Source of the DNA: Candidatus Eiseniibacteriota bacterium
GTDB taxonomy: Bacteria; Eisenbacteria; RBG-16-71-46; CAZAMP01
DNA: 64,000 nt
Assembly (NCBI GenBank): GCA_965224245.1
Contig: OZ245046.1
Span: forward strand, 3,488,001-3,552,000
Direction of reading: 5' to 3'
In this document: positions 1 to 28,263 of the stretch, piece by piece
How positions within the stretch are numbered: the stretch's first letter is position 1
Layout: every line of letters starts with the position of its first letter
The notes under the pieces: generated by a model
What the model was told of the DNA's origin: nothing
The model's database searches: none
Seen by the model: only the letters and a program-made list of their open reading frames with translations
Translations under genes and position numbers: made by a program

Positions 1-135
1 CAGCTTCACCAGAACCTGCCGCATGTGCCGCCGCCGTTCGTTTGGACCAACGCTACCCGACGTGTGCATCCGGGCGCCAATGGTAGCACCCGTCGATCGG
101 TCAGGATCGGTTCCGGCTCGCTCGCATGGGGCTGG

Positions 136-439
136 GTGCCGGCTCGACAAGCGTGGGGCGCTACGTCGCTCGTTTGGGGGCTGCGTGCCGGCTCGTCAAA
201 CGTGGGGCGCTACGTCGCTCCGGCTGCCGGCGTCACCCCGAGACCGGTCCGGGCATCATTTAGTGCCGGAGCGGCTCTGCGGCACTCGTGTGTCGCACGA
301 GTCGCGACTCCGGCCCCACGCTTGTCGAGCCTGTGCCGAGCTCCCCGAAGCTCGCTCCGGGGATGACGTGCTCGCCCCCGCGGGGCGACCCGCGGAGTGA
401 ACGAGCGTCACACCGCGCCCGGGACGCCGACGTGAGGAG
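136..439 (+). repeat. Left arm of long imperfect inverted repeat (REP/MITE-like structured element)
   Basis: 136-376 is the near-identical reverse complement of 919-1156, and 402-439 matches 857-894. Contains two tandem ~50-bp units and a perfect 19-bp internal inverted pair (141-159 / 313-331). Confidence 0.9.
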
Positions 440-15632: not shown

Positions 15633-16613
15633 CTACCGAGAACCCGGCGACGATTCGTTTGCGTCTCGAATGTGGAGCTGGAACTCGGCGGGGTGGATTC
15701 CGATGATCCGGAGCCCTCCCGCGAGGTCGACCGACGGCGTCACGGTGTGCGTGCCGGGGCCGAGACCGGCCGCGTCGACGTGGATCGTGATGCCCGTCGG
15801 CTCGCCGCGCGCGGCTCGCTCCCCGAGCCGATCGAGCCGGCTCCGGGGGCCGAAGAGCGTGACCGCGCCCGAGTCCGGGGTCACGTCCACGAGGTAGCGG
15901 CGCGCGTTCCGGACCGCGACCGGGATCGCGTCGAGCTTCAGCTGGGAGACGGGCTCGACGTCGGCGTGGACGGCCACGGTGCCCGGGTGCGCGGTGAGCC
16001 CGCGCGGAAGCGATATCTCGACGCGCTCGGAGACCGGACGATCCCAGGTCGACGTGTCGATGGGGCGCGTCCGGACCCCTTCGAGTCCCTCGACGATTCG
16101 CTCGGGCCCGGTGATCGCGACCGCCGACGGAGCGATGGTGACCTCGCCGCTGATGTCGAACCCCTCCGGCGGCGACCCGACCAGCGCGGCCTCGACGTCC
16201 ACCTCGCGGGTGAGCCGCTCGTCGAGACTCAGCGTCAACGCCTTCGGCTCGATGATCGCCAGCACGTTGACCGGAAGATCGAGCGGAACCACCACGTCGC
16301 CCCGGGCGAGGACCCGGCGGACGTCGGTCTCGTCTCCATCGAGACGGACCGCGACGAACACCCCGCTCTCGGCGGGCGGCGTGGAGCGGAGCTTCAGCGC
16401 CAGCCGTCCCTTGGCCGAGACGCGAATCGTCGCCAGCGGCGGCGGCTGACTCACGAGCACCATGTCGGGCGGGCGCTCCACGACGAGCCGAACATCCAGA
16501 TCCAGCTCGTGCTCGGTGTCGAGGTACACCCCCCCGAACACGACGAGGGCGAGCCCCAGGGCCAGGAGCTTGGCGCCCAGGTTCTCGGTCAGCCGCCTCC
16601 GGATCGGTGTCAT
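15633..16613 (-). CDS. YbbR/CdaR-like domain protein
   Basis: ENLGAKLLALGLAL N-terminal anchor followed by YbbR-like beta repeats (P..V.I.GP). Confidence 0.8.
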   Translation of the reverse strand: MTPIRRRLTENLGAKLLALGLALVVFGGVYLDTEHELDLDVRLVVERPPDMVLVSQPPPLATIRVSAKGRLALKLRSTPPAESGVFVAVRLDGDETDVRRVLARGDVVVPLDLPVNVLAIIEPKALTLSLDERLTREVDVEAALVGSPPEGFDISGEVTIAPSAVAITGPERIVEGLEGVRTRPIDTSTWDRPVSERVEISLPRGLTAHPGTVAVHADVEPVSQLKLDAIPVAVRNARRYLVDVTPDSGAVTLFGPRSRLDRLGERAARGEPTGITIHVDAAGLGPGTHTVTPSVDLAGGLRIIGIHPAEFQLHIRDANESSPGSR

Positions 16614-16665
16614 CCCCACCTCGCTTCGGGCGCGCGCCGTCGCGCGCGCCGCCCGGTCGCGCCGG

Positions 16666-17502
16666 TCAGGCGCGCGTCGCCAGGAACCACGCACCCGTCG
16701 TCAAGAGCTCTCCGAGTCCCGGCAACCGGCCGAGGAGCCCGGCCCGGACGACGGGAACGCGATACCGATACCGAAACGCGGGGCGCAACACAAACGCCGT
16801 TTCGTCCACGAGGGTCAGCGGACTCGATGCGATCGCGGCTCGCATGCGGCGCCGGCCGAGGCGGCAGCGTCCCAGGTGCAGGACCTCGGCCGAGTGGTCG
16901 GGGTCGAGACGCCGCGCCAGACCCAGGAAGCCCGGCACGTGCTGGATCCAGGGGAGCTTCAGGATCGGCCGTGACAGGAGCTGCTGGTGCGCGCCGAACG
17001 GCGACGCATAGGGCGGAAAGGTGAACAGCACGTGCCCGCCGGGTGCCAGGAGTCGCGCCAGCACCCCGAGCGCGCGATCCAGCGCCTCGACGTGTTCGAT
17101 CACGTCGCGAAGGAGAACGAGCGCGTACGGCGGACGGAGCTCTCCGAGGGTCGCCTGGTCGGTCACGTCACCGACCGCGAACCGGATCGCGCCGAATCCG
17201 AGGGGCTCGTTGATCGCGCGCGCGAGCTCGGTCCGCGGCGCCGAGAGCTCCAGACCGTCGGCGTCGAGGCCGGTCGCCACGTGGAGCGCGGCCAGACAGC
17301 CGCCCTCGCCGGCGCCCACCTCGAGCAGTCGCCCCGACGAGGGCCGCGCCCCATGCGCGTCGAGGTAGGGCAGGATGTGGTCGCGTGTGATCGCCCCCTG
17401 GAACTCCCAGTACGCGACCTTCCAGCGCGGCACGTCCGGTCCCAGACGCGCGAGGTCGGCCTCGGACAGCGTGGGGCGCAGTCGCTCGGCCCAGTACGTC
17501 AT
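16666..17502 (-). CDS. Class I SAM-dependent methyltransferase
   Basis: LLEVGAGEGG, LLRDVIEHV, LAPGG, FPPYASPFGAHQ. Confidence 0.85.
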   Translation of the reverse strand: MTYWAERLRPTLSEADLARLGPDVPRWKVAYWEFQGAITRDHILPYLDAHGARPSSGRLLEVGAGEGGCLAALHVATGLDADGLELSAPRTELARAINEPLGFGAIRFAVGDVTDQATLGELRPPYALVLLRDVIEHVEALDRALGVLARLLAPGGHVLFTFPPYASPFGAHQQLLSRPILKLPWIQHVPGFLGLARRLDPDHSAEVLHLGRCRLGRRRMRAAIASSPLTLVDETAFVLRPAFRYRYRVPVVRAGLLGRLPGLGELLTTGAWFLATRA

Positions 17503-19115
17503 CGAGGATTCCCCGGCGTGACGCCATCCTCGCCGACCACCTGGAAGATCACGTACCAGAACGTCGGGATCGGCATGTCCTTGGCCATCGGCCGGTAGCG
17601 TTCCGGGCGCCGCGCGAAGTACTCGGCCGGCACGTTGCCCTCCAGACGGTGGCTGAAGTGACTCTCCCAGACCACGAAGCTGCCGGCGGGAAGGCGGCGC
17701 AGCGTCTCGATCGTGACCAGCGGGTACCGCGTGCGATCGAACCGATCGTGGTCTCCCAGGAAGAAGAACCACGGGTGATTGACGGCCACCGGTCGACCGC
17801 GGGCGTTCGCATCGATCCAGCGCACGATGTCGGCGACCGCGCGTCGCTCGGGATTGAGCCCGATCGGCGGCTCGGCCACCGCCGTGGTCACCACGAGGAC
17901 GGCGACGACGGCCCACGCCCGGCGTGCCACGTCGCGGACGAGGGCGAACGCGGCGGCAGCCGCCACCGCGCTCCCGAACCAGATCCACGGCTCGACACCC
18001 CGGTTGACCGGGTGCTCCCACACGAGCTCGTGCACGCCGAACACCGCGATCGCGAGCGTGTGCGCGAGCGCGAGCGCCACGGCGACCCGATCGACCCACG
18101 CCCCGCGCCCACCGCGACCGGCTCCCGCGGGCTCCCAGGCAAAGCCGGCCACGAGCGCGATGAACGGACCGATGGCCACGAAGTGACGCAGATAGCCGAC
18201 GCTGCCCCCGATGTCGTGAGCGTTCCAGGCCAGGAGGCTCAGCCCCGCGAGCAGTGTGAGCACGCTCCCCGCCACGATCGTGCGACCGGTCCGCGCTCCA
18301 ACGCGCGTGGACCCCCGCGGCGCCGCGTCGGTGGGATCCGCGTCGCGGGCGCGGACGAGACCGCACAGCACGAACGCGTACAGCGCACCGCCGGTGACCA
18401 TCGGAAACGTCCGGACGTGATGGACGAGCGGCTGCCCCCCGGCGAAGGAGCGTCCGAACTCGTTCCCGAGGAGCTGGTTCAGGAGCCACAGCGGCTCGCC
18501 GTCGACGATCCATCCCCCGACGTTCCACACGATCAGACCGAGCGCGGCGAGTGGCAGCGGTCGTGGTCCGTACCGGCGTACGAGCGGCACGAGCAGCCAC
18601 GGCAGGACGAGAACCAGCTCCAGCCGCGTCAGGGGCACGAGCCCGATCAGGAAACCTGACAGCATCGCCCGGCCTCTCATCAGGGACCAGAGCGCGGCCG
18701 TCAGGAGCAACGCCGCCAGCGGCTCGACCAGCCCGCTGTACCCGAGCTTGAACGCGAAGGGCTGCGCCGCCACCGCCACCGCCACCGGCAATCGGACCGC
18801 ACCGAGCCCCAGCGCGCCGGCGACGCTCCAGGTCACCAGCAGCGTCGCCGCCGACACGAGCGCCGTCGTGATCTCGACCGCCCCGTACCCGAGCTGCGAC
18901 GGCAGCGCGTACACGAGCGTGAAGAGCGGCCGGCCCCACAGGCTGATCAGCTTGGAGGGATCGTGGATGCTCTGCTTGGCCAGGAAGTAGTGGGCGATGT
19001 CGTCGTCGTTGAACGTTCCGGGCGAGAGCCGGCCGTAGATCACCCAGACGAGAAGCCACACGACGCACACGGCCAGCACGCGCGCGTCGGGTCGGGTGGG
19101 GCGCACGGCGATCAT
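17499..19115 (-). CDS. Polytopic membrane protein, probable GT-C (ArnT/PMT-like) glycosyltransferase
   Basis: First loop NDDDIAHY, WGRPLFT, LVEP, TRLE, YLRH; about 11-13 TM segments; ATG overlaps the upstream TGA. Confidence 0.65.
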   Translation of the reverse strand: MIAVRPTRPDARVLAVCVVWLLVWVIYGRLSPGTFNDDDIAHYFLAKQSIHDPSKLISLWGRPLFTLVYALPSQLGYGAVEITTALVSAATLLVTWSVAGALGLGAVRLPVAVAVAAQPFAFKLGYSGLVEPLAALLLTAALWSLMRGRAMLSGFLIGLVPLTRLELVLVLPWLLVPLVRRYGPRPLPLAALGLIVWNVGGWIVDGEPLWLLNQLLGNEFGRSFAGGQPLVHHVRTFPMVTGGALYAFVLCGLVRARDADPTDAAPRGSTRVGARTGRTIVAGSVLTLLAGLSLLAWNAHDIGGSVGYLRHFVAIGPFIALVAGFAWEPAGAGRGGRGAWVDRVAVALALAHTLAIAVFGVHELVWEHPVNRGVEPWIWFGSAVAAAAAFALVRDVARRAWAVVAVLVVTTAVAEPPIGLNPERRAVADIVRWIDANARGRPVAVNHPWFFFLGDHDRFDRTRYPLVTIETLRRLPAGSFVVWESHFSHRLEGNVPAEYFARRPERYRPMAKDMPIPTFWYVIFQVVGEDGVTPGNPR

Positions 19116-19279
19116 CAGAAGAGCGTGTAGATGAACGGCGCCGCGCTCTGCCCGATCACGACCACGAGCCCGAGCGTCAACAGCAGCAGCACCAGGGGAA
19201 CCGGCCACCAGACCCGGTTCACCACCGAGTAGGCGCAGAGCTCGAGGAAGAGCCGGCCCAGATGTCGAACGCGCATCAT
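19115..19279 (-). CDS. DUF5989/SxtK-like small membrane peptide (54 aa) with C-terminal FIYxxF motif
   Basis: Hand-translated: MMRVRHLGRLFLELCAYSVVNRVWWPVPLVLLLLTLGLVVVIGQSAAPFIYTLF*. Below the ORF-track cutoff; its stop overlaps the next ATG. Confidence 0.9.
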   Translation of the reverse strand: MMRVRHLGRLFLELCAYSVVNRVWWPVPLVLLLLTLGLVVVIGQSAAPFIYTLF

Positions 19280-19325
19280 GACGACCTCGATCGGGTTCCA
19301 GAGGACCCAGCGGCTCTCGCCGGGA

Positions 19326-21161
19326 TCAGTCGAGCACGTAGTCCTCGCGCCAGTCGTCCCGGTCGGCGAACTCGGGCTGCCGGGACTTCTCGAGCACGCA
19401 GTTCTCGAGCACGAGATGGTCCATCTCCGTGCGCATGAAGCAGCGATACGCGTCCTCGGGCGTGCAGACGATCGGCTCGCCGCGGACGTTGAACGACGTG
19501 TTTATGATGACCCCGCATCCGGTCAGGCGCTCGAACGCCCGGATGATCGCATGATAGTCCGGGTTCCGCTCGGCCGTCACCGACTGTACGCGCGCGGAGT
19601 AGTCGACGTGCGTGATCGCCGGGATGTCCGAACGGACCTCGTTGACCCACTGGCGGAGATCGCCCGTCTGGGGCCCGGTGCCGGGGTCGAGCCGCCGCTT
19701 CTCGCGCACGTCGGCCACCAGCAGCATGTACGGCGACTCCACGTCCAGGTCGAAGTACTCGTCGATCGTCTCGTACAGCACCGACGGCGCGAACGGCCGG
19801 AACGACTCCCGGTACTTGATCTTGAGGTTCATGATCGACTGCATCTTCGGCGACCGCGCGTCTCCGACGATCGAACGGTGGCCGAGCGCGCGAGGTCCGA
19901 ACTCCATGCGTCCCTGGCAGAGCCCGACCACGTTCTGGTCCGCGATCAGCTCGGCCACGTGCTCGGCGCGGGCCTCCGGTGATTCGAACACGCGGTACGG
20001 GTACCCGTTGGCGTCGAGGTAGGCCCGGATCTCGTCGGGATCGAAGCGCGGTCCGAGGTACGCGCCCTGCATCGCGTCGTGCACCCCGTCGGGGGACCGC
20101 GGCTTGCCCGCGATCTGGTGCCACGCGTAGAGGGCCGCACCGAGCGCGCCGCCCGCGTCCCCGGCCGCGGGCTGGATCCACAGCTCGTCGAAGATTCCGT
20201 CGCGGAGCAGCCGTCCGTTCGCGACGCAGTTCAGGGCGACGCCACCGGCCATGACCACGCGGCGCTCGCCGGTGACGAGCCGGGCGAAGCGCGCCATCCG
20301 GAGCACGATCTCCTCGGTGACCACCTGGATCGAGCGCGCCAGGTTGCGCTCGCGCTCGGTGATCTCGCTCTCCGGCGTTCGGGGTGGGCCGTCGAACAGC
20401 TCGGCGAACGCACCGTTCGTCATCGTGAGCCCGCCCATGTAGTCGAAGTAGCGCTGGTTCATCCGGAACGAGCCGTCCTCGCGGAGATCCACCAGATGCT
20501 CGAGGATGCGGTCGACGTACGTCGGCTCACCGTACGGCGCGAGGCCCATCAGCTTGTACTCGCCCGAGTTCACCCGGAACCCGGTGAAGTACGTGAACGC
20601 CGAGTACAGGAGTCCCAGCGAGTGCGGAAACCGCAGCTCACGCACGAGCTCCACGTGGTTCTCACGACCCACCCCGATCGTGCTCGTCGCCCACTCGCCG
20701 ACGGCATCCAGGGTCAGGATGGCCGCCGAGGGAAACGGTGACGGGAAGAACGCGCTGGCCGCGTGGCTCTCGTGGTGCTCGGTGAAGTACAGCTCGACCG
20801 GGCGCGGGTACCCCAGTCGGCCCAGCTCGCGCTCGATCTCGTAGGGGATCCAGAGCTTCTGTCGCATCCAGAGGCTGATCGCCTTGCGGAACGACGAGAA
20901 CCCCCGGGGCGCGACACGAAAGTACGTGGCCGCCAGCCGCATGAACTTCGTCAGCGGCTTGTCGTAGAACACGACCACGAGATCGTCCGACGGCGACGCG
21001 CCGGCCTCGCGGAGACAGTACGCCACCGCGTGGCGCGGAAAGCGGAAGTCGTGCTTCCTGCGCGTGAACCGCTCCTCCTGCGCCGCGGCGACGATCTCGC
21101 CGTCCCGAACGAGGCAGGCGGCCGAGTCGTGGTAGTAGGCGCTGATCCCGAGGATGATCAC
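19326..21161 (-). CDS. O-carbamoyltransferase (CmcH/NodU/SxtI family)
   Basis: ILGISAYYHDSAA, EHHESHAASAF, GEYKLMGLAPYG, AGGVALN, EFGPRALG, KYRESFRPFAP, NTSFNVRGEP. Confidence 0.95.
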   Translation of the reverse strand: MIILGISAYYHDSAACLVRDGEIVAAAQEERFTRRKHDFRFPRHAVAYCLREAGASPSDDLVVVFYDKPLTKFMRLAATYFRVAPRGFSSFRKAISLWMRQKLWIPYEIERELGRLGYPRPVELYFTEHHESHAASAFFPSPFPSAAILTLDAVGEWATSTIGVGRENHVELVRELRFPHSLGLLYSAFTYFTGFRVNSGEYKLMGLAPYGEPTYVDRILEHLVDLREDGSFRMNQRYFDYMGGLTMTNGAFAELFDGPPRTPESEITERERNLARSIQVVTEEIVLRMARFARLVTGERRVVMAGGVALNCVANGRLLRDGIFDELWIQPAAGDAGGALGAALYAWHQIAGKPRSPDGVHDAMQGAYLGPRFDPDEIRAYLDANGYPYRVFESPEARAEHVAELIADQNVVGLCQGRMEFGPRALGHRSIVGDARSPKMQSIMNLKIKYRESFRPFAPSVLYETIDEYFDLDVESPYMLLVADVREKRRLDPGTGPQTGDLRQWVNEVRSDIPAITHVDYSARVQSVTAERNPDYHAIIRAFERLTGCGVIINTSFNVRGEPIVCTPEDAYRCFMRTEMDHLVLENCVLEKSRQPEFADRDDWREDYVLD

Positions 21162-22744
21162 GGTCGCGTCCCCGATCCGGTCCCGCGTGCCTGAAGGAGC
21201 GGGCGCACGCGCTCGTAGATCGCCGTGGCCACCGCGCGGGCCCCGTCCTCGTCGGTGTGACACCAGTCGATCATCGTGGGACCGTCGAGCTCGTCGAGGG
21301 CGCCGGTGATCACGTGCGTGCCCCCGCGCAGTCGCGCCGTCGCGGCCGCGTAGACCGTGCCCAGGCCGGGGCCGAAGCCGTCGCGAATGTGCGGCTCGTC
21401 CTCCACGAGGCGGACCTTGGTGTAGACACAGGGCTGCCAGAACGCCGCGACGTCGAAGCCGTAGCGCGCCCCGATCGACCCGGCGTGCGCGATCGCCGCC
21501 TCGTAGATGTCGACCGCGTGGCCGGCGAGCGTGTCGGCCGGCGCGGGAAGATCCGCCTCGCCGTAGTACCAGGTCCGGGGGGTCGCCGGCCTGAACGCGT
21601 TCGCCAGCACGTGGAGCCCGCTGAACCGCTTCAGGACCGGAAGGAAGCCGCGATCCTCGAAGCTGGCCTCGAGCTGGCGGTAGTTCTGCGGCGCGGGCTC
21701 GGGACTCGGGCGCTGGAGCTGGGCGAAGACGTCGTTGACGCCGTCGTAGAAGATCGCCAGATCGGGAACGTCGCCGGCCGCGCAGCGCTCGGCCAGGAGC
21801 ATCGCCTCCTGCCAGCTCACGTAGGCGGACTCGCCGTAGTTCACCGCCCGCACCGGCAACGCGTCGGCGGCGGCCAGCTCCGCGAACGCGGACGGGATCG
21901 TGTGGGCGTCCCGGTTTCCCTCGCCCCACATCGTCGACCCGCCGAAGAAGAAGACGGTCGCGACGGCGGCATCGCGCGAGGTCGGCGTCGCTCGCAGACC
22001 GCCGGCCACGCGAATGTACTCGCCCGAGAAGTCCTTGCGGCGCCATCCCGCGAACCCGGCGTAGCGCTGAGCCCGGCTCTGCTCGAGCTCGCGGAAGTAG
22101 TCGGCGGTCCAGCTCGCGTCGTCGTAGGCGGCCGCGTCGGCCCGCGCGTCCCCCCGCCGCCATCCATCGGCGCCGATCGCTCGCAGTGCGACCCCGGCCG
22201 CGAGATTGATCCCGACGACGGCGATGGCGAACGTGACCGCCGCCCGCCAGACGCTGGCACCCCGCGCGTCCACGTCCTCGGACTCGCGCCCGAACTGCCA
22301 GCGCGGCATCGAACGCTCGGCCGACGGATGCAGGCGAACCCAGTAGCTGCTCCGGGACGGCGAGGGCTCCGAGCGGGTCGGATCGCGACCGATCAGTCGG
22401 AGGATCACCGACACCAGCGTGAAGAGCGTGTAGAACACGGCCCCGAGGAGCACGACGCTGAGGATCCCGGACACGACGTGGCCCAGCCACGCGCCGGCGC
22501 GAGCGATCGCCCGCTCCGCCGCGCGCGAGACACGAGCCGAGATCGCCAGGGCGCCCCCCACGACCAGCACGACGATCGCCATGGGATGGTGCCCGAGGAA
22601 CCACAGGAGCGCGGCGACCGCGACCGGCACGAGGATCGACAGCCACGGCGAGACCCGGGGCGCCGGGTCCTCGACGGGAACGGACGGAACGCTACGCCAC
22701 ACCCACGAACCTCCAGGGGAACTCGTCCAAACGGCGTGGATCAT
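21158..22744 (-). CDS. SxtJ-like membrane domain fused to SGNH/GDSL domain
   Basis: SxtJ-like FYTLF...LRLIGRDP...SYW...QF; SGNH blocks FGGSTMWG, NYG, YDGVND, DWCH. Start uncertain. Confidence 0.75.
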   Translation of the reverse strand: MIHAVWTSSPGGSWVWRSVPSVPVEDPAPRVSPWLSILVPVAVAALLWFLGHHPMAIVVLVVGGALAISARVSRAAERAIARAGAWLGHVVSGILSVVLLGAVFYTLFTLVSVILRLIGRDPTRSEPSPSRSSYWVRLHPSAERSMPRWQFGRESEDVDARGASVWRAAVTFAIAVVGINLAAGVALRAIGADGWRRGDARADAAAYDDASWTADYFRELEQSRAQRYAGFAGWRRKDFSGEYIRVAGGLRATPTSRDAAVATVFFFGGSTMWGEGNRDAHTIPSAFAELAAADALPVRAVNYGESAYVSWQEAMLLAERCAAGDVPDLAIFYDGVNDVFAQLQRPSPEPAPQNYRQLEASFEDRGFLPVLKRFSGLHVLANAFRPATPRTWYYGEADLPAPADTLAGHAVDIYEAAIAHAGSIGARYGFDVAAFWQPCVYTKVRLVEDEPHIRDGFGPGLGTVYAAATARLRGGTHVITGALDELDGPTMIDWCHTDEDGARAVATAIYERVRPLLQARGTGSGTRP

Positions 22745-22855
22745 AGCGCGCCCTGCATGTCCGGGGAAGCCACCGGCCGGGAGCCGCCGGCGTGGCGCGC
22801 GAGGAGCGCAGCCGGGCCGACACCGAGGGCCCGGGCGGGACCGGAGCGGTCGACG

Positions 22856-24187
22856 TCAGCGAAACCGGATCCCGCAGCGGACGTTCATCAGGAAGAACGA
22901 CACGTCGTCGGCGTCGGTGTCGTGCGCCTCGACCGTGTACTGCGCGAACGCGTCCACGACGAGGACCGACCAGGCTCCGCCGAACAGGAGCGTCAGCTCG
23001 TCGAAGAGGAAGTCCGACGACTCCAGCGTGAGCGCGTCGGTGGTCGCGAAGTCCAGGGTGGAGCCCGACCCGAGGTAGTTCCGGTAGCCGACGGCGTTCT
23101 CCAGGTCGACCCACAGATCCAGATCCCCCGCCCCGAGATAGCCCACCCGCGCGATCAGCCGCGACTCGTCGTAGTCCCCTTCCCCGCTCAGGTCGGGGAT
23201 GGTCGTGGTGTCGCCATCGGTGGGATCGTCCGGCGACCGGACCCACTCCCCGCCGATCCCCAGCTCCGCCGATGCACCGCTCAGGGTGGACCACGCCCCG
23301 AAGAGCCGGCAACGCGCCAGTCGGTAGCTCGAGTAGGCCTCGTTCGGATCGTCGTAGTGCACGAGCTGACCGTCGACCTCGACGCGAGCGCTCCAGGTCC
23401 ACGAGAGCTCGCGCGTGAACGCGCTCCGCAGGTCGAGGTCGGTGTTGCTGGGAGACACGACACCCGCCTGGTAGTCGTACCGGGTCACCGACAGCGTCGC
23501 GTCGTAGCGCCAGGGCGTGGCCAGGAGCGTGTAGCCGCCGACCTCCCCGAACCAGCGCGTGCGGTCGCCGAAGTACCCGCTGTAGTCGTTTCGATGAGAG
23601 ACGTCGGCGACGGCCCGCACGGTCGTGTCGCCCCACGGCGCGGTGAGCCTGGCGCGGATGCCGGCGCGGTCGTGATCGTACAGGCTGTCGCCCGAGACGC
23701 GTGAGAACGTGTGCCGCGCGGTCAGTCGGAGCCTCGCGCGCGGCGCGAGGGCGCGCTCGGTCCAGACGTCGACGTCGTGGACGAGATCGCGGCTCCGGTC
23801 GTCGCCGGTGAGCCCGTGGTTCAGACGCAGATCCGAGCCCGCGCCGACCGACCAGCCGTCGGCGGGTCGTACTCGATACGCACCGGCGAAGGTCAGCGAC
23901 GAGCGCTCGGCGTCCTGCTCGTACTCGGCGTCGAGCCGCCGCTCGTAGTCCGTCGCCGAGCGCCAGCTCACGTCGACGAAGCCGCCGGCGAGCGTCTCGT
24001 CCGAGCGGATGCTCTCCAGCACGACGTCGGGCACCTCGTCGTCGAGCGAGGGACTGTCCTCGAGATCGAAGAAGAGATCACCCTGTCCGTACGACTCGCT
24101 GAACACGTCGAGCTGGAATCCGAGCTCGAGGCGGAAGGGGTCGAGCCCCTGGGCGGGCGCCGCGCCCGCGAGGGCGATCCCGAGCAA
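22856..24187 (-). CDS. Putative outer-membrane beta-barrel protein
   Basis: Signal-like N-terminus, alternating aromatic/polar strands, C-terminal ...NVRCGIRFR. Start codon uncertain. Confidence 0.6.
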   Translation of the reverse strand: MLGIALAGAAPAQGLDPFRLELGFQLDVFSESYGQGDLFFDLEDSPSLDDEVPDVVLESIRSDETLAGGFVDVSWRSATDYERRLDAEYEQDAERSSLTFAGAYRVRPADGWSVGAGSDLRLNHGLTGDDRSRDLVHDVDVWTERALAPRARLRLTARHTFSRVSGDSLYDHDRAGIRARLTAPWGDTTVRAVADVSHRNDYSGYFGDRTRWFGEVGGYTLLATPWRYDATLSVTRYDYQAGVVSPSNTDLDLRSAFTRELSWTWSARVEVDGQLVHYDDPNEAYSSYRLARCRLFGAWSTLSGASAELGIGGEWVRSPDDPTDGDTTTIPDLSGEGDYDESRLIARVGYLGAGDLDLWVDLENAVGYRNYLGSGSTLDFATTDALTLESSDFLFDELTLLFGGAWSVLVVDAFAQYTVEAHDTDADDVSFFLMNVRCGIRFR

Positions 24188-24224
24188 CCCGACGACGCCG
24201 AGGCCGGCGACGCCGCGCCGGAGG

Positions 24225-25259
24225 CTAGTCGCGAACGGACTCGACCTGCCCCAGGAGCGACGACGCCAGCTGCGCCTCGGCCAGCGCTTGCTTCGGGTTT
24301 CCGTCCTGGAGTGCGCGCCGTCCGCGTTCGACGTGCGACGCAGCGCGCTCCAGAAGCATCTCGACGTTACGATCGGAGCTCTCCCGCAGCTGGGCCTGGA
24401 GCAGGGTCAATCGGTCGGTCACGCGGACGATCACGGCTCGAACCTCGTCCGCGTCCGGCTCTCCGGCCTCCTGACGCAGGATGTCCAGCGCGCGCTGCCG
24501 GGCGCGAAGCGTCAGCTTGCGGGCGGGCTCCAGCTGGCGATCGCGCAGCCGCGCGCGCGCATCGTCCTGCAGGCGACGCGCCTCGTCGAACATCGGGTCC
24601 AGGGCGGGAGCATCATTCACGGCCAGTCGGGCCTCGCGCAAGAACTCTTCAGTGCGGTCGATCTCGGTCTCGATGCGCGCCGCGTCCACACGACCATCAC
24701 CCTGCGCCGCATGCAGGGAGCGCAGCAAGAGGTCGCGTCCGAAGAGCGCGAAACGAACGGCCTGGCGATACAGCCCATCGTCGAACGCGCGCCGGCCGCG
24801 CGAGAGCTGCTGGAGGCCCGCCTCCATCAGTCGCTCGGCCTCGGGATTGGGGGCCGACGTGAGCGCGTCGCGAATCCGGGCCACGAGATCCTCGTTGGCG
24901 GCCAGGGTGACCCGGACCTCGTCGAGCAGCCGGAGCTGAGATCGGGTGATGTCGACGGCACGGATGGCGCTGCGACGCGCCTCCTTCGTGAGCGAGAACG
25001 CGCGGACGCGGCTGTCGTTGCGGAACGCCGACCAGGCTTCGTCCTGCATCTCGGCCGCCAGCGAGAGCACGTTGGACGGGCGCGGACCGAGCGCATGCGT
25101 GACGACGTCGCGAGCCTCCATCAGGATCTCGTCGGTTCGCCGCAGCTCGGCGAGCAGCCGGTCGGCGTTGGGCTGAGCCGTCGCCGGGACGGTGACCAGC
25201 GCCGTCAGCGTGGCGGCGGCGACCAGCGCGAGCATGAGGTGTCGAATGGCGTTCGTCAT
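24225..25259 (-). CDS. Secreted all-alpha protein with four ~75-aa helical repeats
   Basis: Signal peptide ...TVPATA-Q; ABAB repeat pattern; GGAG RBS. Confidence 0.7.
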   Translation of the reverse strand: MTNAIRHLMLALVAAATLTALVTVPATAQPNADRLLAELRRTDEILMEARDVVTHALGPRPSNVLSLAAEMQDEAWSAFRNDSRVRAFSLTKEARRSAIRAVDITRSQLRLLDEVRVTLAANEDLVARIRDALTSAPNPEAERLMEAGLQQLSRGRRAFDDGLYRQAVRFALFGRDLLLRSLHAAQGDGRVDAARIETEIDRTEEFLREARLAVNDAPALDPMFDEARRLQDDARARLRDRQLEPARKLTLRARQRALDILRQEAGEPDADEVRAVIVRVTDRLTLLQAQLRESSDRNVEMLLERAASHVERGRRALQDGNPKQALAEAQLASSLLGQVESVRD

Positions 25260-25306
25260 CGTCGATCACTCCTGGGTGCTCCGACGGGAGCAGTGCCCCA
25301 GAGTTT

Positions 25307-25323
25307 AGCAGTCATCGTGCCAA
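25307..25323 (-). promoter_or_regulatory. Sigma-54 (-24/-12) promoter
   Basis: TTGGCACGATGACTGCT, GG-N10-GC, directly downstream of a sigma-54 activator gene. Confidence 0.8.
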
Positions 25324-25483
25324 CGGCCGGGCGCCGCATCGGCCGCCGAAACCCATTCTACCACAACACGATACCGACAGCCGGGGGACCGCCGGGTCTC
25401 CGTGGCCGGGCGCGGGAGGTGCCCGAGGGGGGACACCGACGCCGCGCGCTGCTCGCCCCGGTACACGGGCCCGTCTCGACCGC

Positions 25484-26899
25484 CTATGCGGGCTCGCCCG
25501 GCCCGGGCATGAGGCCGTGCTTCTCCATCCGCGAGTAGAGCGTGCGGCGGGTCAGCCCCAGGAGCCGCGCGGCCTGGCTCTTGTTGCCGCCCGCGCGCTC
25601 GAGCGCCGCCAGGATCAGGTCGCGCTCGACGGCCTCCAGCGAGAGCCCGTCCTCGGGAATCCGGACGACCGCACCCCTGGGGCCGCCCCCACCGGCGGGC
25701 CCCCTGGAATCGGCACCGGCGGAGTCGGCCAGCGACGGCAGCTCCGCTGGCGTGATCGGCCCCGCACCGGCCAGGATCAACGCGCGCTCGAGGACGTTCT
25801 CGAGCTCGCGGACGTTCCCGGGAAAGGGATGTGCCATCAGCGCCCGCATCGCGTCGGAGGTGACGGCCGTCTCGTCGCGTCCCCGGGACGCGAGGTAGTG
25901 CCGCACCAGAAGGGTCAGGTCGTTGTCCCGCGCCCGCAGGGGCGGCATCTCGATCGGGAACACGTTCAGGCGGTAGAAGAGGTCCTCGCGGAACTCGCCG
26001 GCGCTGATCATCGCCTCGAGCTCCCGATGCGTGGCGGCGATGATGCGAACGTCGGTGGTGAGCGTCTCGGTTCCCCCCACGCGCACGAAGCTCTTCTCCT
26101 CGAGCACCTGGAGGAGCTTCACCTGCGTCGCCGCGGTGAGCTCGCCGATCTCGTCCAGGAAGACCGTCCCCCCGTCGGCGACCTCGAACCGCCCCGGCTT
26201 GTCCCGGATCGCGCCGGTGAACGCACCCTTCTCGTGGCCGAACAGCTCGCTCTCGAGCAGCGTCTCGGGCAGCGCCCCGCAGTTGATCTTCACGAACGAC
26301 CGGGCGCTCCGCTTGCTCGCGGCGTGGATCGCTCGCGCGATCCGCCCCTTGCCGGTGCCGCTCTCTCCCCGGACGAGAACCGTCGCGTCGGAGTCGGCGA
26401 CCTTCCGGGCGAGCGTGAACACGTCGGACATCGCCGCGGACTCGCCGATGATGCCGTCGAACGCGGCGCCGGCGTCCCCGAGTCTCGTGACCAGGCGCTC
26501 GTTCTCGGCGCGCAGCGCGTCGCGATCGGCACGGACCGATCGGAGCTCGGCCACGCGCGTCGCCAGTGCCGACACCTCGTCCAGCTCGAACGGCTTGGTG
26601 AGATAGTCGTAGGCGCCGGCGCGCATGGCATCGACCGCGTTGGACACCGTACCGTGCGCGGTCATGATCACGACCTCGGGCGCGCCCTCGAGCTCCCGGC
26701 ACGCGTGGAGGACGGCCATCCCATCGGGTGGCGGCATCCGCAGGTCGGTGATCACCAGATCGTAGGCGTGCGCCGCCAGGTGTTCGAGCGCGGCGCGTCC
26801 GCTGTCGGCGGTGTCCACGGCGTGACCGTCGTCGGCGAGCGTGTCGGCGACCAGCCTCGCCATCCGGGTCTCGTCGTCACACACGAGTATGCGCATCAC
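25484..26899 (-). CDS. Sigma-54-dependent response regulator (NtrC/ZraR/AtoC family)
   Basis: REC (DD, DLRMP, KPF), GESGTGK, GAFTGA, FREDLFYRLNV, Fis HTH. Confidence 0.95.
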   Translation of the reverse strand: MMRILVCDDETRMARLVADTLADDGHAVDTADSGRAALEHLAAHAYDLVITDLRMPPPDGMAVLHACRELEGAPEVVIMTAHGTVSNAVDAMRAGAYDYLTKPFELDEVSALATRVAELRSVRADRDALRAENERLVTRLGDAGAAFDGIIGESAAMSDVFTLARKVADSDATVLVRGESGTGKGRIARAIHAASKRSARSFVKINCGALPETLLESELFGHEKGAFTGAIRDKPGRFEVADGGTVFLDEIGELTAATQVKLLQVLEEKSFVRVGGTETLTTDVRIIAATHRELEAMISAGEFREDLFYRLNVFPIEMPPLRARDNDLTLLVRHYLASRGRDETAVTSDAMRALMAHPFPGNVRELENVLERALILAGAGPITPAELPSLADSAGADSRGPAGGGGPRGAVVRIPEDGLSLEAVERDLILAALERAGGNKSQAARLLGLTRRTLYSRMEKHGLMPGPGEPA

Positions 26900-28263
26900 G
26901 TCTTCCCATCGAAGGGGACCCGCGGCAGGCGGACCCGGAACTCGGTTCCCGATCCGACCGCGCTGGTCACGTCGATCCGTCCACCGGCGTCGGACACGAC
27001 GCGCTGGGAGATGGCCAGCCCGAGCCCGCTGCCCGTCTCGCGTCCGGAGTGGAACGGCCGGAAGATCGCGTCGAGGTCATCGGCCGCGATCCCGACCCCG
27101 GTGTCCGTCACGCAGACGACCGCCTCGTCCCCGTCCAGCTCGGCGGACACGCGCAACGTACCGCCTTCGGGCATCGCCTGTCTCGCGTTCAGCACGAGAT
27201 TCAGGATCACCTGCTGGAGGGCGCCGGCGTCCAGCGCGACCCCCAGGCCGGTCGGGACGTCGACGGTCACGTCCACGCCCGCGTGGTCGAGGTCGGCGCG
27301 GACGAGTCCGAGCACGACGCCGGCCACCTCACCGACGTCGGCCACCGCGCCGGCATCCCCGGCGCCACCGCGTCGCGCGAATGCCAGGTACGCGTCGACG
27401 ATCGTGGTCAGCCGATCCACCTCGGCCGGGATGTAGTCGAAGAGCTCCTCGCCGGTACCGTGACGCTTGCGCAGCCGCTCGGCCGTGGCGCGGATGATCC
27501 CGAGCGGATTCTTGATCTCGTGCGCGACCGACGCCGCCATCTCACCCATCATCGACAGGGTCTCGGTGCGCTGAAGCGTCTCGTCCAGCTGCCACTGCAT
27601 CCGGACGGTGCGAAAAAGCGTCACGCCCAGAAGCACGATCGCGATCGCGCTGGCGCCTCCGGCCAGCAGCGCCGCGTGGCGCACGCGATCGAGCGCGCCG
27701 AAGTAGCCGGCGCCCGCCTCCACCGCCACCACGGCGATCACGTCCTCGCCGTCGCGGAGCGGCGCGTAGCCGTTCTTGTAGTACGCGCCGTGCGACGCGT
27801 AGAGGTCGCTGGTGGCGTCGAGGCCGCTGCGGGCCGCGGTAAACGCGGCCCGGTGGAGGCTCGCGACGGGATGCGGCTCACCCGCGGGCACGCCGCCGTT
27901 CAGGTCCACGAGTGATCGCCCGCCGACGTCCAGCAGGCTGACGTTCGCCAGATCCAGATCCGAGGCGAGCTCTTCGAAGTGCAGGCGCACCGAGAGCGCG
28001 CCGAGCGATCCCTCCGGATCGCGCCGGATGTCCTCGACGTCGCTCACGTCGATCGGACGCGTGGCCGCGATGGAGATCGCGGCCAGCCGCGCCCCCAGCT
28101 CGGAGTCGAGGGCGCCCCGGGTCGCGCGATAGAACCGCCAGCCCGCCACGTTCACCACGGCCAGGATCGACGCGAACACGAAGAAGAAGACGAGGATGCG
28201 CCTGGCCCGCCGGTCGCTCCGGCGCCGGACCCGGCGAGAGAACGTCGACTCGACGCGTCCCAT
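26896..28263 (-). CDS. Membrane sensor histidine kinase (ZraS-like)
   Basis: Two TMs around a periplasmic domain; AHEIKNPL, NLVLNA, DTGVG, GSGLGL. Confidence 0.93.
   Translation of the reverse strand: MGRVESTFSRRVRRRSDRRARRILVFFFVFASILAVVNVAGWRFYRATRGALDSELGARLAAISIAATRPIDVSDVEDIRRDPEGSLGALSVRLHFEELASDLDLANVSLLDVGGRSLVDLNGGVPAGEPHPVASLHRAAFTAARSGLDATSDLYASHGAYYKNGYAPLRDGEDVIAVVAVEAGAGYFGALDRVRHAALLAGGASAIAIVLLGVTLFRTVRMQWQLDETLQRTETLSMMGEMAASVAHEIKNPLGIIRATAERLRKRHGTGEELFDYIPAEVDRLTTIVDAYLAFARRGGAGDAGAVADVGEVAGVVLGLVRADLDHAGVDVTVDVPTGLGVALDAGALQQVILNLVLNARQAMPEGGTLRVSAELDGDEAVVCVTDTGVGIAADDLDAIFRPFHSGRETGSGLGLAISQRVVSDAGGRIDVTSAVGSGTEFRVRLPRVPFDGKT

Follow-up and report, generated by a model that had tools for sequence, protein, structure and literature searches.

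A minus-strand operon in the analysed window, a 64,000-nucleotide stretch of contig OZ245046.1 from a Candidatus Eiseniibacteriota bacterium, encodes a 54-residue membrane microprotein of the DUF5989 family that ends in the hexapeptide FIYTLF, next to a NodU/CmcH-type carbamoyltransferase and a protein in which an SxtJ-like domain is fused to an SGNH domain. We tentatively read these proteins as an MBOAT-independent carbamoyl relay, in which the carbamoyl group may pass from the enzyme to Tyr51 of the microprotein, then to Ser270 of the SGNH domain and finally to a hydroxyl of an envelope glycan. This reading, for which we infer every chemical step as well as the acceptor, stays somewhat short of probable. 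That DUF5989 (SxtK) might more generally be the tyrosine carrier of a widespread MBOAT-free carbamoyl system, leading from an SxtI-type enzyme via SxtJ to an SGNH transferase on the outside, is a possibility that falls clearly short of probable. The acyl-tyrosine shuttle of DltX and PatA has only recently been worked out, and the same tail is found here on a very common microprotein.

The DUF5989 microprotein and its C-terminal tail

The microprotein gene (window positions 19279..19115, minus strand; 54 aa) matches the Pfam family DUF5989 (PF19451) over profile positions 3-49 of 49, with an E value of 7.2e-12 and 45.6 bits against a cut-off of 27. The peptide has a basic N-terminus, a WW-P motif and one hydrophobic membrane helix, and the stop follows directly after QSAAPFIYTLF. 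The C-terminal hexapeptide F49-I-Y51-T-L-F54 is encoded at 19118..19135 on the minus strand, with the codon of Tyr51 at 19127-19129 (codons checked).

Twelve close relatives of the peptide were found, and family size and tail statistics were determined with a profile of 15 peptides against representative clusters at E <= 0.001, which yielded 4278 representative clusters. The conservation values refer to the 150 best representatives, which are the most similar to the query and somewhat overstate the conservation. The tyrosine, whose conservation was expected in the original prediction, stands at position -4 in 147 of them, accompanied by Phe at -1 in 146 and Phe at -6 in 133. The full pattern F.Y..F forms the protein end in 131/150, and FIYTLF is the commonest tail (106/150). 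The three representatives without the tyrosine, in which the match sits inside a longer call, look mis-called. Across the whole 6.9-Mb source genome, the pattern ends only 2 of 70,084 stop-to-stop open reading frames (ORFs) of at least 50 aa, and as both are DUF5989 genes, the tail motif is not a product of chance. When PDB sequences were searched, neither the single peptide nor the family profile found more than chance matches to signal-peptide-like stretches.

Tails of this form are known from acylation systems. According to excerpts of a report on these pathways, the Tyr of the C-terminal FXYXXF motif of DltX receives D-alanine from the MBOAT protein DltB and passes it to the SGNH protein DltD, PatA places an acetyl group on this Tyr of its own tail, and PatB takes the acetyl group from the hexapeptide FIYANF, in which NgPatA ends; the acyl-tyrosine shuttle is described there as a feature of MBOAT pathways (PMC12148441). 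For comparison, 18 MBOAT genes from genomes of the source's own phylum were used in place of DltX sequences. All 18 proteins end in FIY.. and 17 in F.Y..F, with the consensus (P/Q)FIYFQF; in form, the tail of the peptide matches these 17 ends. When profiles of DUF5989 and of the 55 C-terminal MBOAT residues were compared, helix and tail were aligned in register with a probability of 87.4% and a score of 29.0; all 20 column shuffles remained at or below a probability of 1.2%, and reversal of the MBOAT rows gave 1.6%. The peptide and the MBOAT and DltX tails have a motif in common, at the same place and with the same kind of helix, a likeness that does not demonstrate homology.

No match to the MBOAT family PF03062 was found anywhere in the source genome, which is 97.4% complete; the same search gave matches in 3 of 14 control genomes. 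In a set of 125 phylum genomes with a completeness of 90% or more, 43 contain DUF5989, 37 an MBOAT and 15 both, counts that are not independent because the genomes are interrelated. In the 15 genomes with both, no DUF5989-MBOAT pair lies nearer than ~20 kb on a shared contig (tables read by eye), and the remaining 28 of the 43 DUF5989 genomes are without an MBOAT. The Pfam matches of 120 listed longer DUF5989 forms likewise include no MBOAT family. A system without an MBOAT, as originally proposed from the window, is thus borne out for the source genome and for 28/43 DUF5989 genomes of the phylum.

Two of the longer forms place the tail behind other proteins. P0235 (405 aa, a cluster of 7 sequences) consists of a Ser/Thr kinase followed by the complete helix and FIYTLF, and in P0205 a TPR protein is fused to DUF5989 in the same manner. 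The tail module may be used outside carbamoyl systems, too.

The source genome has three DUF5989 genes, with the tails FIYTLF, FIYDIF and ELYRIF, and two of the three peptides are not linked to a carbamoyltransferase. The second gene (tail PFIYDIF; G000:C1:2373120-2373281, L004 9120-9281), outside the window, stands alone, flanked by a gene for an OYE-type flavin reductase and by a convergent block of NagZ, SpoIID and AnmK; no carbamoyltransferase, SxtJ or SGNH was found near it. The third gene (tail PELYRIF; G000:C1:5985754-5988391, L005 6824-9391), also outside the window, is arranged tail-to-tail with a gene that comes after an asparagine synthase gene and encodes a 794-aa protein, in which a single N-terminal anchor is combined with an SGNH domain of the GGS type and with TPR repeats at the C-terminus. 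The pairing of a peptide with an SGNH-TPR protein is seen again elsewhere in the phylum, in three further genomes (L087, L093, L099).

Partner genes and the SxtJ-SGNH fusion protein

To describe the surroundings of the peptide, the pattern APFIYTLF was searched in one genome per species; of the resulting 589 stretches, 252 encode relatives, and the best 80 were kept as a sample that is biased to the exact APFIYTLF tail and to the window peptide. These loci come from many phyla, and in 80/80 the stop follows directly after the tail motif. A carbamoyltransferase is encoded on the same strand in 73/80 loci; in four of the seven loci without one, the peptide is located at a contig edge. A profile of the N-terminal domain of the fusion protein matches a same-strand ORF, mostly of ~140 aa, in 69/80 loci, so that the co-occurrence of carbamoyltransferase and SxtJ with the peptide, suspected from the window, is found widely. 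The most frequent gene orders are enzyme-SxtJ-peptide (17) and SxtJ-enzyme-peptide (14); with an additional SGNH gene behind the peptide, these two orders occur 8 and 6 times, respectively. Further neighbours are glycan genes, encoding GT2, WecG, Bac_transf, epimerases, sulfotransferases and ABC transporters.

The carbamoyltransferase of the window (21161..19326, minus strand; 611 aa, GTG start) matches PF02543 with an E value of 1e-94 over profile positions 2-346 of 346 and PF16861 with an E value of 6.4e-73 over positions 1-170 of 170, and carries the motif GPRALGHRS at residue 422. With 127.7 bits against a cut-off of 1000 it is not a NodU equivalog. Three carbamoyltransferase paralogues are present in the source genome, of which only that of the window is of the SxtJ-linked kind.

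Proteins of the SGNH type are frequent neighbours as well. With an iterated SGNH profile, which was trained on the same 80 loci, a same-strand SGNH gene was detected within 4 kb of the peptide in 30/80 loci and in 24 of the 55 loci whose flanks extend 4 kb or more to either side; 31 of these 55 full-flank loci contain an SGNH anywhere in the locus. As the profile finds 10 matches in the 6.94-Mb source genome, a chance SGNH neighbour is expected in well under 1 in 100 cases. The two main clusters of SGNH neighbours correspond to Pfam GDSL_2, with faint DltD and AlgX matches in two members. All 33 stand-alone partner SGNH proteins have at least one strongly hydrophobic segment, located before block I in 28. 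The SGNH partner of the original prediction therefore stands as a frequent neighbour, but it is absent from about half of the loci.

Two further observations concern this SGNH family. Another member (profile E 1.2e-51), encoded at G000:C1:3486981-3488195, reaches into the window at positions 1-195 (minus strand), ~19 kb from the operon. Many stand-alone partner SGNH proteins (L012-L086) have a Glu near the end of the anchor helix, followed by L/F-R-(L/V)-x-G...P; this motif recalls the L-R-L-I-G-R-D-P that ends SxtJ and may be either a low-complexity chance likeness or a shared docking element.

The fusion protein of the window (22744..21158, minus strand; 528 aa, taken from the ORF) was aligned with 17 homologues of the same layout, 11 of them with 38-52% identity at 95-97% coverage and 6 with 28-32% identity at 84-93% coverage. 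An AlphaFold2 model of it has a mean predicted local distance difference test score of 77 and a predicted template modelling score of 0.64. The SxtJ-like domain comprises about residues 30-135 (22340..22657, minus strand), with helices 33-49, 53-72 and 74-117 in the model, and then RDPT...YW. The modelled disordered loop 126-163 precedes the linking membrane helix of residues 165-189 (22178..22252, minus strand), which contains the hydrophobic segment 169-187. The SGNH domain, about residues 225-521 (21182..22072, minus strand), has invariant catalytic residues and a confident fold in the model.

The SxtJ model PF19588 matches the fusion protein itself below threshold (E 0.008, 17.3 bits against 24.4, profile positions 61-99 only), and a whole-genome scan with it at E <= 0.1 gave no match. 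As 8 of the 18 fused homologues match PF19588 (best E 2.1e-5) and the N-domain profile finds SxtJ in 69/80 loci, we accept the N-terminal part as a divergent SxtJ domain, and the SxtJ label given to it originally holds in the sense of a relative. The conserved columns of SxtJ are P, G, P, R-G-D-P-L, YW and Y..QF. In the third hydrophobic stretch, drawn as one long helix in the model, a Pro is conserved in 93% of the sequences.

In the SGNH part, block I reads FFGGS with Ser270 (21935-21937); Asp493 is encoded at 21266-21268 and His496 at 21257-21259 (codons checked). Ser270, Gly304, Asn337, Asp493 and His496 are invariant in 18/18 aligned sequences, and PF13472 matches below its cut-off (E 8.1e-5, 23.6 against 32.9). 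In a Foldseek search, the PDB yielded 40 matches with E <= 0.001; each of the 45 rows shown is an esterase or acyltransferase of the SGNH type. The best match is CgnD (8a2n) with an E value of 2.2e-9 and a TM score of 0.69 on the target, followed by esterases at ~1e-5. When the SGNH family profile was run against PDB sequences, CgnD alone fell below E 0.1 (E 1.1e-5), with a match spanning GGST through D..H. A complex prediction for the fusion protein and the peptide, run without controls, gave scores of 0.00 and 0.00 against a mark of 0.32, a result that does not weigh on binding in either direction.

The nearness of CgnD in both fold and sequence raises an unlikely alternative, in which the peptide would be the substrate: its Tyr or its tail would end up as a carbamoylated, perhaps methylated, microprotein or released short peptide, and the SGNH domain would be a peptidase like CgnD. 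As stated in the available part of the crocagin report, CgnD cuts the C-terminal core from a precursor, and its cluster also holds a carbamoyltransferase and a methyltransferase (PMC10070186); a methyltransferase is present in the window operon, too. The cleavage by CgnD is, however, very slow, which its authors say may be explained by prior carbamoylation, again according to that part of the text (PMC10070186). Moreover, DUF5989 occurs in many phyla in loci rich in glycan genes rather than peptide-maturation genes, and its conserved part is a membrane helix with a tail, unlike a leader and core.

A less biased view of the linkage was obtained from the phylum genomes, in which 50 DUF5989 genes lie above the cut-off (linkage tallied by reading tables). 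Of these, 33 are found within ~5 kb of a same-strand carbamoyltransferase and 17 are not, and 40 of the 43 DUF5989 genomes have a carbamoyltransferase. Sixteen unlinked copies were inspected, 14 from phylum genomes and 2 from the source genome. An SGNH lies within ~2.5 kb in 8/16, in four cases an SGNH-TPR protein of 660-800 aa; one of the copies with SGNH (L099) ends at a contig edge next to SxtJ, where the enzyme has possibly been cut off. A recurrent second donor enzyme was not found beside the unlinked peptides in 14 further loci, and one source-genome copy has an asparagine synthase gene nearby.

These unlinked copies bear on the idea that DUF5989 and the SGNH protein shuttle the acyl group of some other donor on the tyrosine, with the carbamoyltransferase modifying the same glycan independently. 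The 17/50 genes that are not next to a carbamoyltransferase, the 3/43 DUF5989 genomes that show no carbamoyltransferase N-domain at all and the two unlinked peptides of the source genome would fit such a shuttle. We nevertheless consider it very improbable: the enzyme is present in 40/43 DUF5989 genomes and on the same strand in 73/80 loci, no other cytoplasmic enzyme recurs beside the unlinked copies, and neither an MBOAT nor another known acyl conduit is present.

In the genomes with unlinked peptides, the orthologous enzyme adjoins SxtJ, without a peptide, in 7/7 cases. The system can therefore split into enzyme plus SxtJ on the one hand and peptide with or without SGNH on the other. This split bears on a further alternative, in which SxtJ and the peptide form a membrane tether that holds the enzyme at the inner face, where it would directly carbamoylate a lipid-linked sugar or another membrane-bound precursor; the SGNH protein outside would be a separate esterase or decarbamoylase that trims the finished polymer, and the tail would serve as a protein-protein contact. 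NodU, CmcH and TobZ modify small-molecule hydroxyls directly, SxtJ accompanies the enzyme in all seven split cases, and its conserved motifs R-G-D-P-L, YW and Y..QF lie in Lys/Arg-rich, cytoplasmic-looking loops that would suit enzyme docking. The SGNH fold resembles esterases at least as much as PatB, and no SGNH is close by in 31/55 full-flank loci. In the saxitoxin gene table, sxtL, the next gene after sxtK, is listed as a decarbamoylation gene and not as a transferase (PMC2679770). A tether, on the other hand, has no need for a near-invariant Tyr and a terminal Phe across the membrane, nor for a tail shaped like that of a proven acyl carrier, and it leaves unexplained why unlinked peptides stand beside SGNH genes in 8/16 cases and why SxtJ is fused to SGNH. 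The split systems are also hard to reconcile with a peptide that merely anchors the enzyme. Taken together, we regard this alternative as rather unlikely.

Fusions among the 120 listed longer DUF5989 forms give a mixed picture. Five carry carbamoyltransferase domains, of which three were read (P0247, P0306, P0313); two of these three have Arg-rich nonsense linkers typical of frameshifted calls in GC-rich DNA, and enzyme-peptide fusions were rejected as evidence, while P0313 may be real. Seven are SxtJ-DUF5989 forms; of the six that were read, P0238, P0251 and P0298 look like true fusions and three look frameshifted.

According to the ORF list and the codon check, the five genes run on the minus strand from 22744 to 16666 and are translationally coupled, and all five lie where they had originally been placed. 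The stop of the fusion gene overlaps the GTG start of the carbamoyltransferase gene in the sequence GTGA. A 46-nt gap containing GAGG leads from the carbamoyltransferase to the peptide gene, whose stop has one base in common with the ATG of the following 538-aa gene (TGATG); that gene and the methyltransferase gene overlap in ATGA. Such overlapping or abutting junctions fit a single translationally coupled operon. With a third-position GC content of 0.91, similar to that of the neighbouring genes, the peptide ORF looks like a real gene of this genome (GC content of the window ~70%). A promoter and terminator scan of 16000-25500 gave no signal exceeding that of shuffled sequences.

The two last genes encode a polytopic membrane protein (19115..17499, minus strand; 538 aa) and an S-adenosylmethionine-dependent methyltransferase (17502..16666, minus strand; 278 aa). 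The former has ~12 hydrophobic segments, and its nearest Atlas clusters (0.98-0.99) include some that are named ArnT family glycosyltransferase or carry PMT_2/PMT; a significant Pfam match was not found (best DUF2079, E 3.8). Its description as GT-C-like in the original prediction is thus backed by its feature neighbours and hydrophobic segments, while Pfam is silent, and we take it as a fair lead rather than a finding. For the methyltransferase, matches were obtained to PF13489 (E 1.1e-14) and to four other families of methyltransferases.

The operon is immediately preceded by a 443-aa ORF (22856-24187, minus strand), for which neither Pfam nor NCBIfam gave a match. Its neighbours in the Atlas are clusters without a name, in one of which 19% of the members have SlipAM. 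The ORF may encode an outer-membrane barrel of the same surface-glycan locus. Further upstream, a pair of ORFs (25484-28263, minus strand), read from the ORF-list translations only, consists of a sensor kinase-like gene (26896-28263) that overlaps a response regulator-like gene (25484-26899) of AAA+ and DNA-binding appearance.

A possible carbamoyl relay

A relay requires the tail of the peptide and the SGNH domain to be on the outer side of the membrane. In the 80 peptides of the locus sample, the 15 residues before the helix contain 252 Lys/Arg, compared to none after it. For the SGNH anchors the bias is weaker, with 118 Lys/Arg before against 62 after and an excess on the N-terminal side in 24/32. 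By this charge bias alone the peptide tail and, less strongly, the SGNH domain are predicted to lie outside the cytoplasm, in agreement with the original assignment. The kinase domain fused ahead of DUF5989 in the cluster of seven sequences likewise places the N-terminus of the peptide inside. From the SxtJ-DUF5989 fusions together with the SxtJ-helix-SGNH fusion it would follow that the RDP loop of SxtJ is cytoplasmic and, more tentatively, that its third hydrophobic stretch returns to the same side.

In its design the proposed relay would follow the Dlt and PatAB pathways, with a carbamoyltransferase as the source of the group. SxtJ, in the window the N-terminal domain of the SGNH protein, would keep the soluble SxtI-type enzyme at the inner membrane face, where the enzyme would use carbamoyl phosphate and ATP to form carbamoyl-AMP. 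The carbamoyl group would then be placed on the hydroxyl of Tyr51 in the FIYTLF tail of the DUF5989 peptide. On the outer face, the tail would hand it to Ser270 of the membrane-anchored SGNH domain, which would pass it on to a hydroxyl of an envelope glycan, and the neighbouring ArnT-like transferase and methyltransferase may act on the same glycan. The tyrosine may be loaded in one of two ways. The hydrophobic tail might dip into a cavity of SxtJ, whose third stretch has the conserved proline in mid-helix. Alternatively, the peptide might be loaded in the cytoplasm before its insertion into the membrane, and each molecule would hence be used a single time; because the peptide is so short, it would have to be inserted post-translationally.

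A number of observations weigh against this relay. Its weak point is the crossing step, as the donor enzyme and the tyrosine are predicted on opposite sides of the membrane. The conserved columns of SxtJ contain no His, Ser or Cys to act as the MBOAT histidine, and for this reason SxtJ is not a small MBOAT in disguise. The likeness to the MBOAT ends is confined to the tail, since removal of the six tail residues abolished the profile match (probability 2.3%, score 12.6). The DltX model PF12459, run against the genome at E <= 10, gave one match at an unrelated place (E 0.176) and none at the three DUF5989 genes, and a scan of the 15 peptides at E <= 10 gave no DltX match either; the likeness to DltX drawn in the original prediction thus stands at the level of the motif, but the DltX model does not match the peptides. 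Within the source genome, the peptide with the tail ELYRIF has not kept the first Phe. Apart from the bias of the 80-locus sample, the partner genes count against the relay where they are missing: 31/55 full-flank loci are without a close same-strand SGNH, 17/50 peptides of the phylum are without a carbamoyltransferase in reach, and the other 8/16 unlinked peptides are found among unrelated genes without an SGNH. In the Foldseek search, PatB does not appear before ranks 43-44 (E ~1e-3), and the rows shown do not include DltD. Finally, carbamoyl-serine enzymes usually turn over slowly.

If the relay is nevertheless correct, both the chemical group carried and the donor enzyme would be new to the tyrosine shuttle, and the question would arise of how a small group crosses the membrane without an MBOAT. 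The relay would assign a function to sxtJ and sxtK, which have lacked one since they were named, and would suggest that the O-carbamoylation of surface glycans outside the cytoplasm is a common, unstudied modification of the envelope. In the broader reading of DUF5989 as a general carbamoyl carrier, the MBOAT-SGNH and AT3-SGNH machines for group transfer in the envelope would be joined by a third kind, and the carbamoyltransferase-associated SGNH proteins (that of the window, SxtL and perhaps CgnD) would be carbamoyl transferases, not hydrolases.

Relation to known systems

HypF, which has YrdC-like and Kae1-like domains and belongs to the superfamily of these carbamoyltransferases, transfers a carbamoyl group to its partner HypE, where the acceptor is the C-terminal cysteine in a flexible tail. 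This would be a precedent in the superfamily for a protein tail as carbamoyl acceptor. Unlike in the window system, the acceptor is a cysteine, HypF and HypE are both located in the cytoplasm, and the carbamoyl group is later turned into the cyanide of hydrogenase.

The saxitoxin genes sxtI-sxtJ-sxtK(-sxtL) resemble the window in the combination of a carbamoyltransferase, SxtJ and a gene of 165 bp, which corresponds to 54 aa. An sxt-like order of enzyme, SxtJ, peptide and SGNH is found in 8/80 loci, and the order enzyme, SxtJ and peptide in 17 more. In contrast to the saxitoxin cluster, the context in the window is that of envelope-glycan genes and not of an alkaloid pathway, and SxtJ is fused to SGNH. 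Presumably sxtL encodes a GDSL protein, and from size and order we infer that DUF5989 corresponds to SxtK and that SxtL belongs to the same SGNH subfamily. In the saxitoxin table, sxtI, sxtJ, sxtK (165 bp) and sxtL ('decarbamoylation') are given in a row, with sxtJ and sxtK of unknown function (PMC2679770). The original prediction, which pointed to sxtI/J/K-type genes, overlooked sxtL, which this table lists after sxtK as a decarbamoylation gene (PMC2679770).

Crocagin biosynthesis offers a further parallel, as CgnD and the SGNH domain of the window have the GGST block I in common. The available part of the crocagin report describes a cluster that encodes the slow hydrolase CgnD, the carbamoyltransferase CgnI and a methyltransferase (PMC10070186); the terms cgnJ and cgnK are absent from its main text. 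Unlike the membrane-anchored SGNH protein of the window, CgnD was obtained as a soluble protein on purification and reportedly cleaves a peptide bond at a slow rate (PMC10070186). The slowness of CgnD together with the carbamoyltransferase in its cluster makes one ask whether the genuine reaction of CgnD is peptide cleavage. There are then three settings in which such an SGNH protein accompanies a carbamoyltransferase, which also feeds the view of the peptide as a substrate.

A literature search found no paper naming DUF5989; the 2023 paper that defined the motif (PMC10664464) lay outside this search and may mention the family. Nothing relevant was found either that joins an acyl shuttle, tyrosine and SGNH, or DltX, with carbamoyl transfer.

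The PatA/PatB pair and other MBOATs with a fused motif resemble the window in that FIY..F forms the extreme C-terminus after a membrane helix; the end is (P/Q)FIYFQF in MBOATs from the source's phylum, compared to PFIYTLF in the window peptide. Unlike in PatA, the motif of the window is carried by a free peptide, the likeness stops at the tail, and PatB is a distant fold match of the SGNH domain. The Dlt system of Gram-positive bacteria (DltB/DltX/DltD) has, like the window, a one-helix microprotein of ~50 residues with an F-x-Y-x-x-F tail, predicted outside, and an anchored SGNH protein. It differs in that the source genome is without an MBOAT, the Pfam model of DltX does not match, the donor is a soluble carbamoyltransferase and not a thioester carrier protein, and the small SxtJ, which has no conserved histidine, stands in the place of the MBOAT. 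Hence, the half of the system made up of the tyrosine tail and the SGNH protein is known from Dlt and PatAB, while the donor half, a carbamoyltransferase with SxtJ and without an MBOAT, is new.

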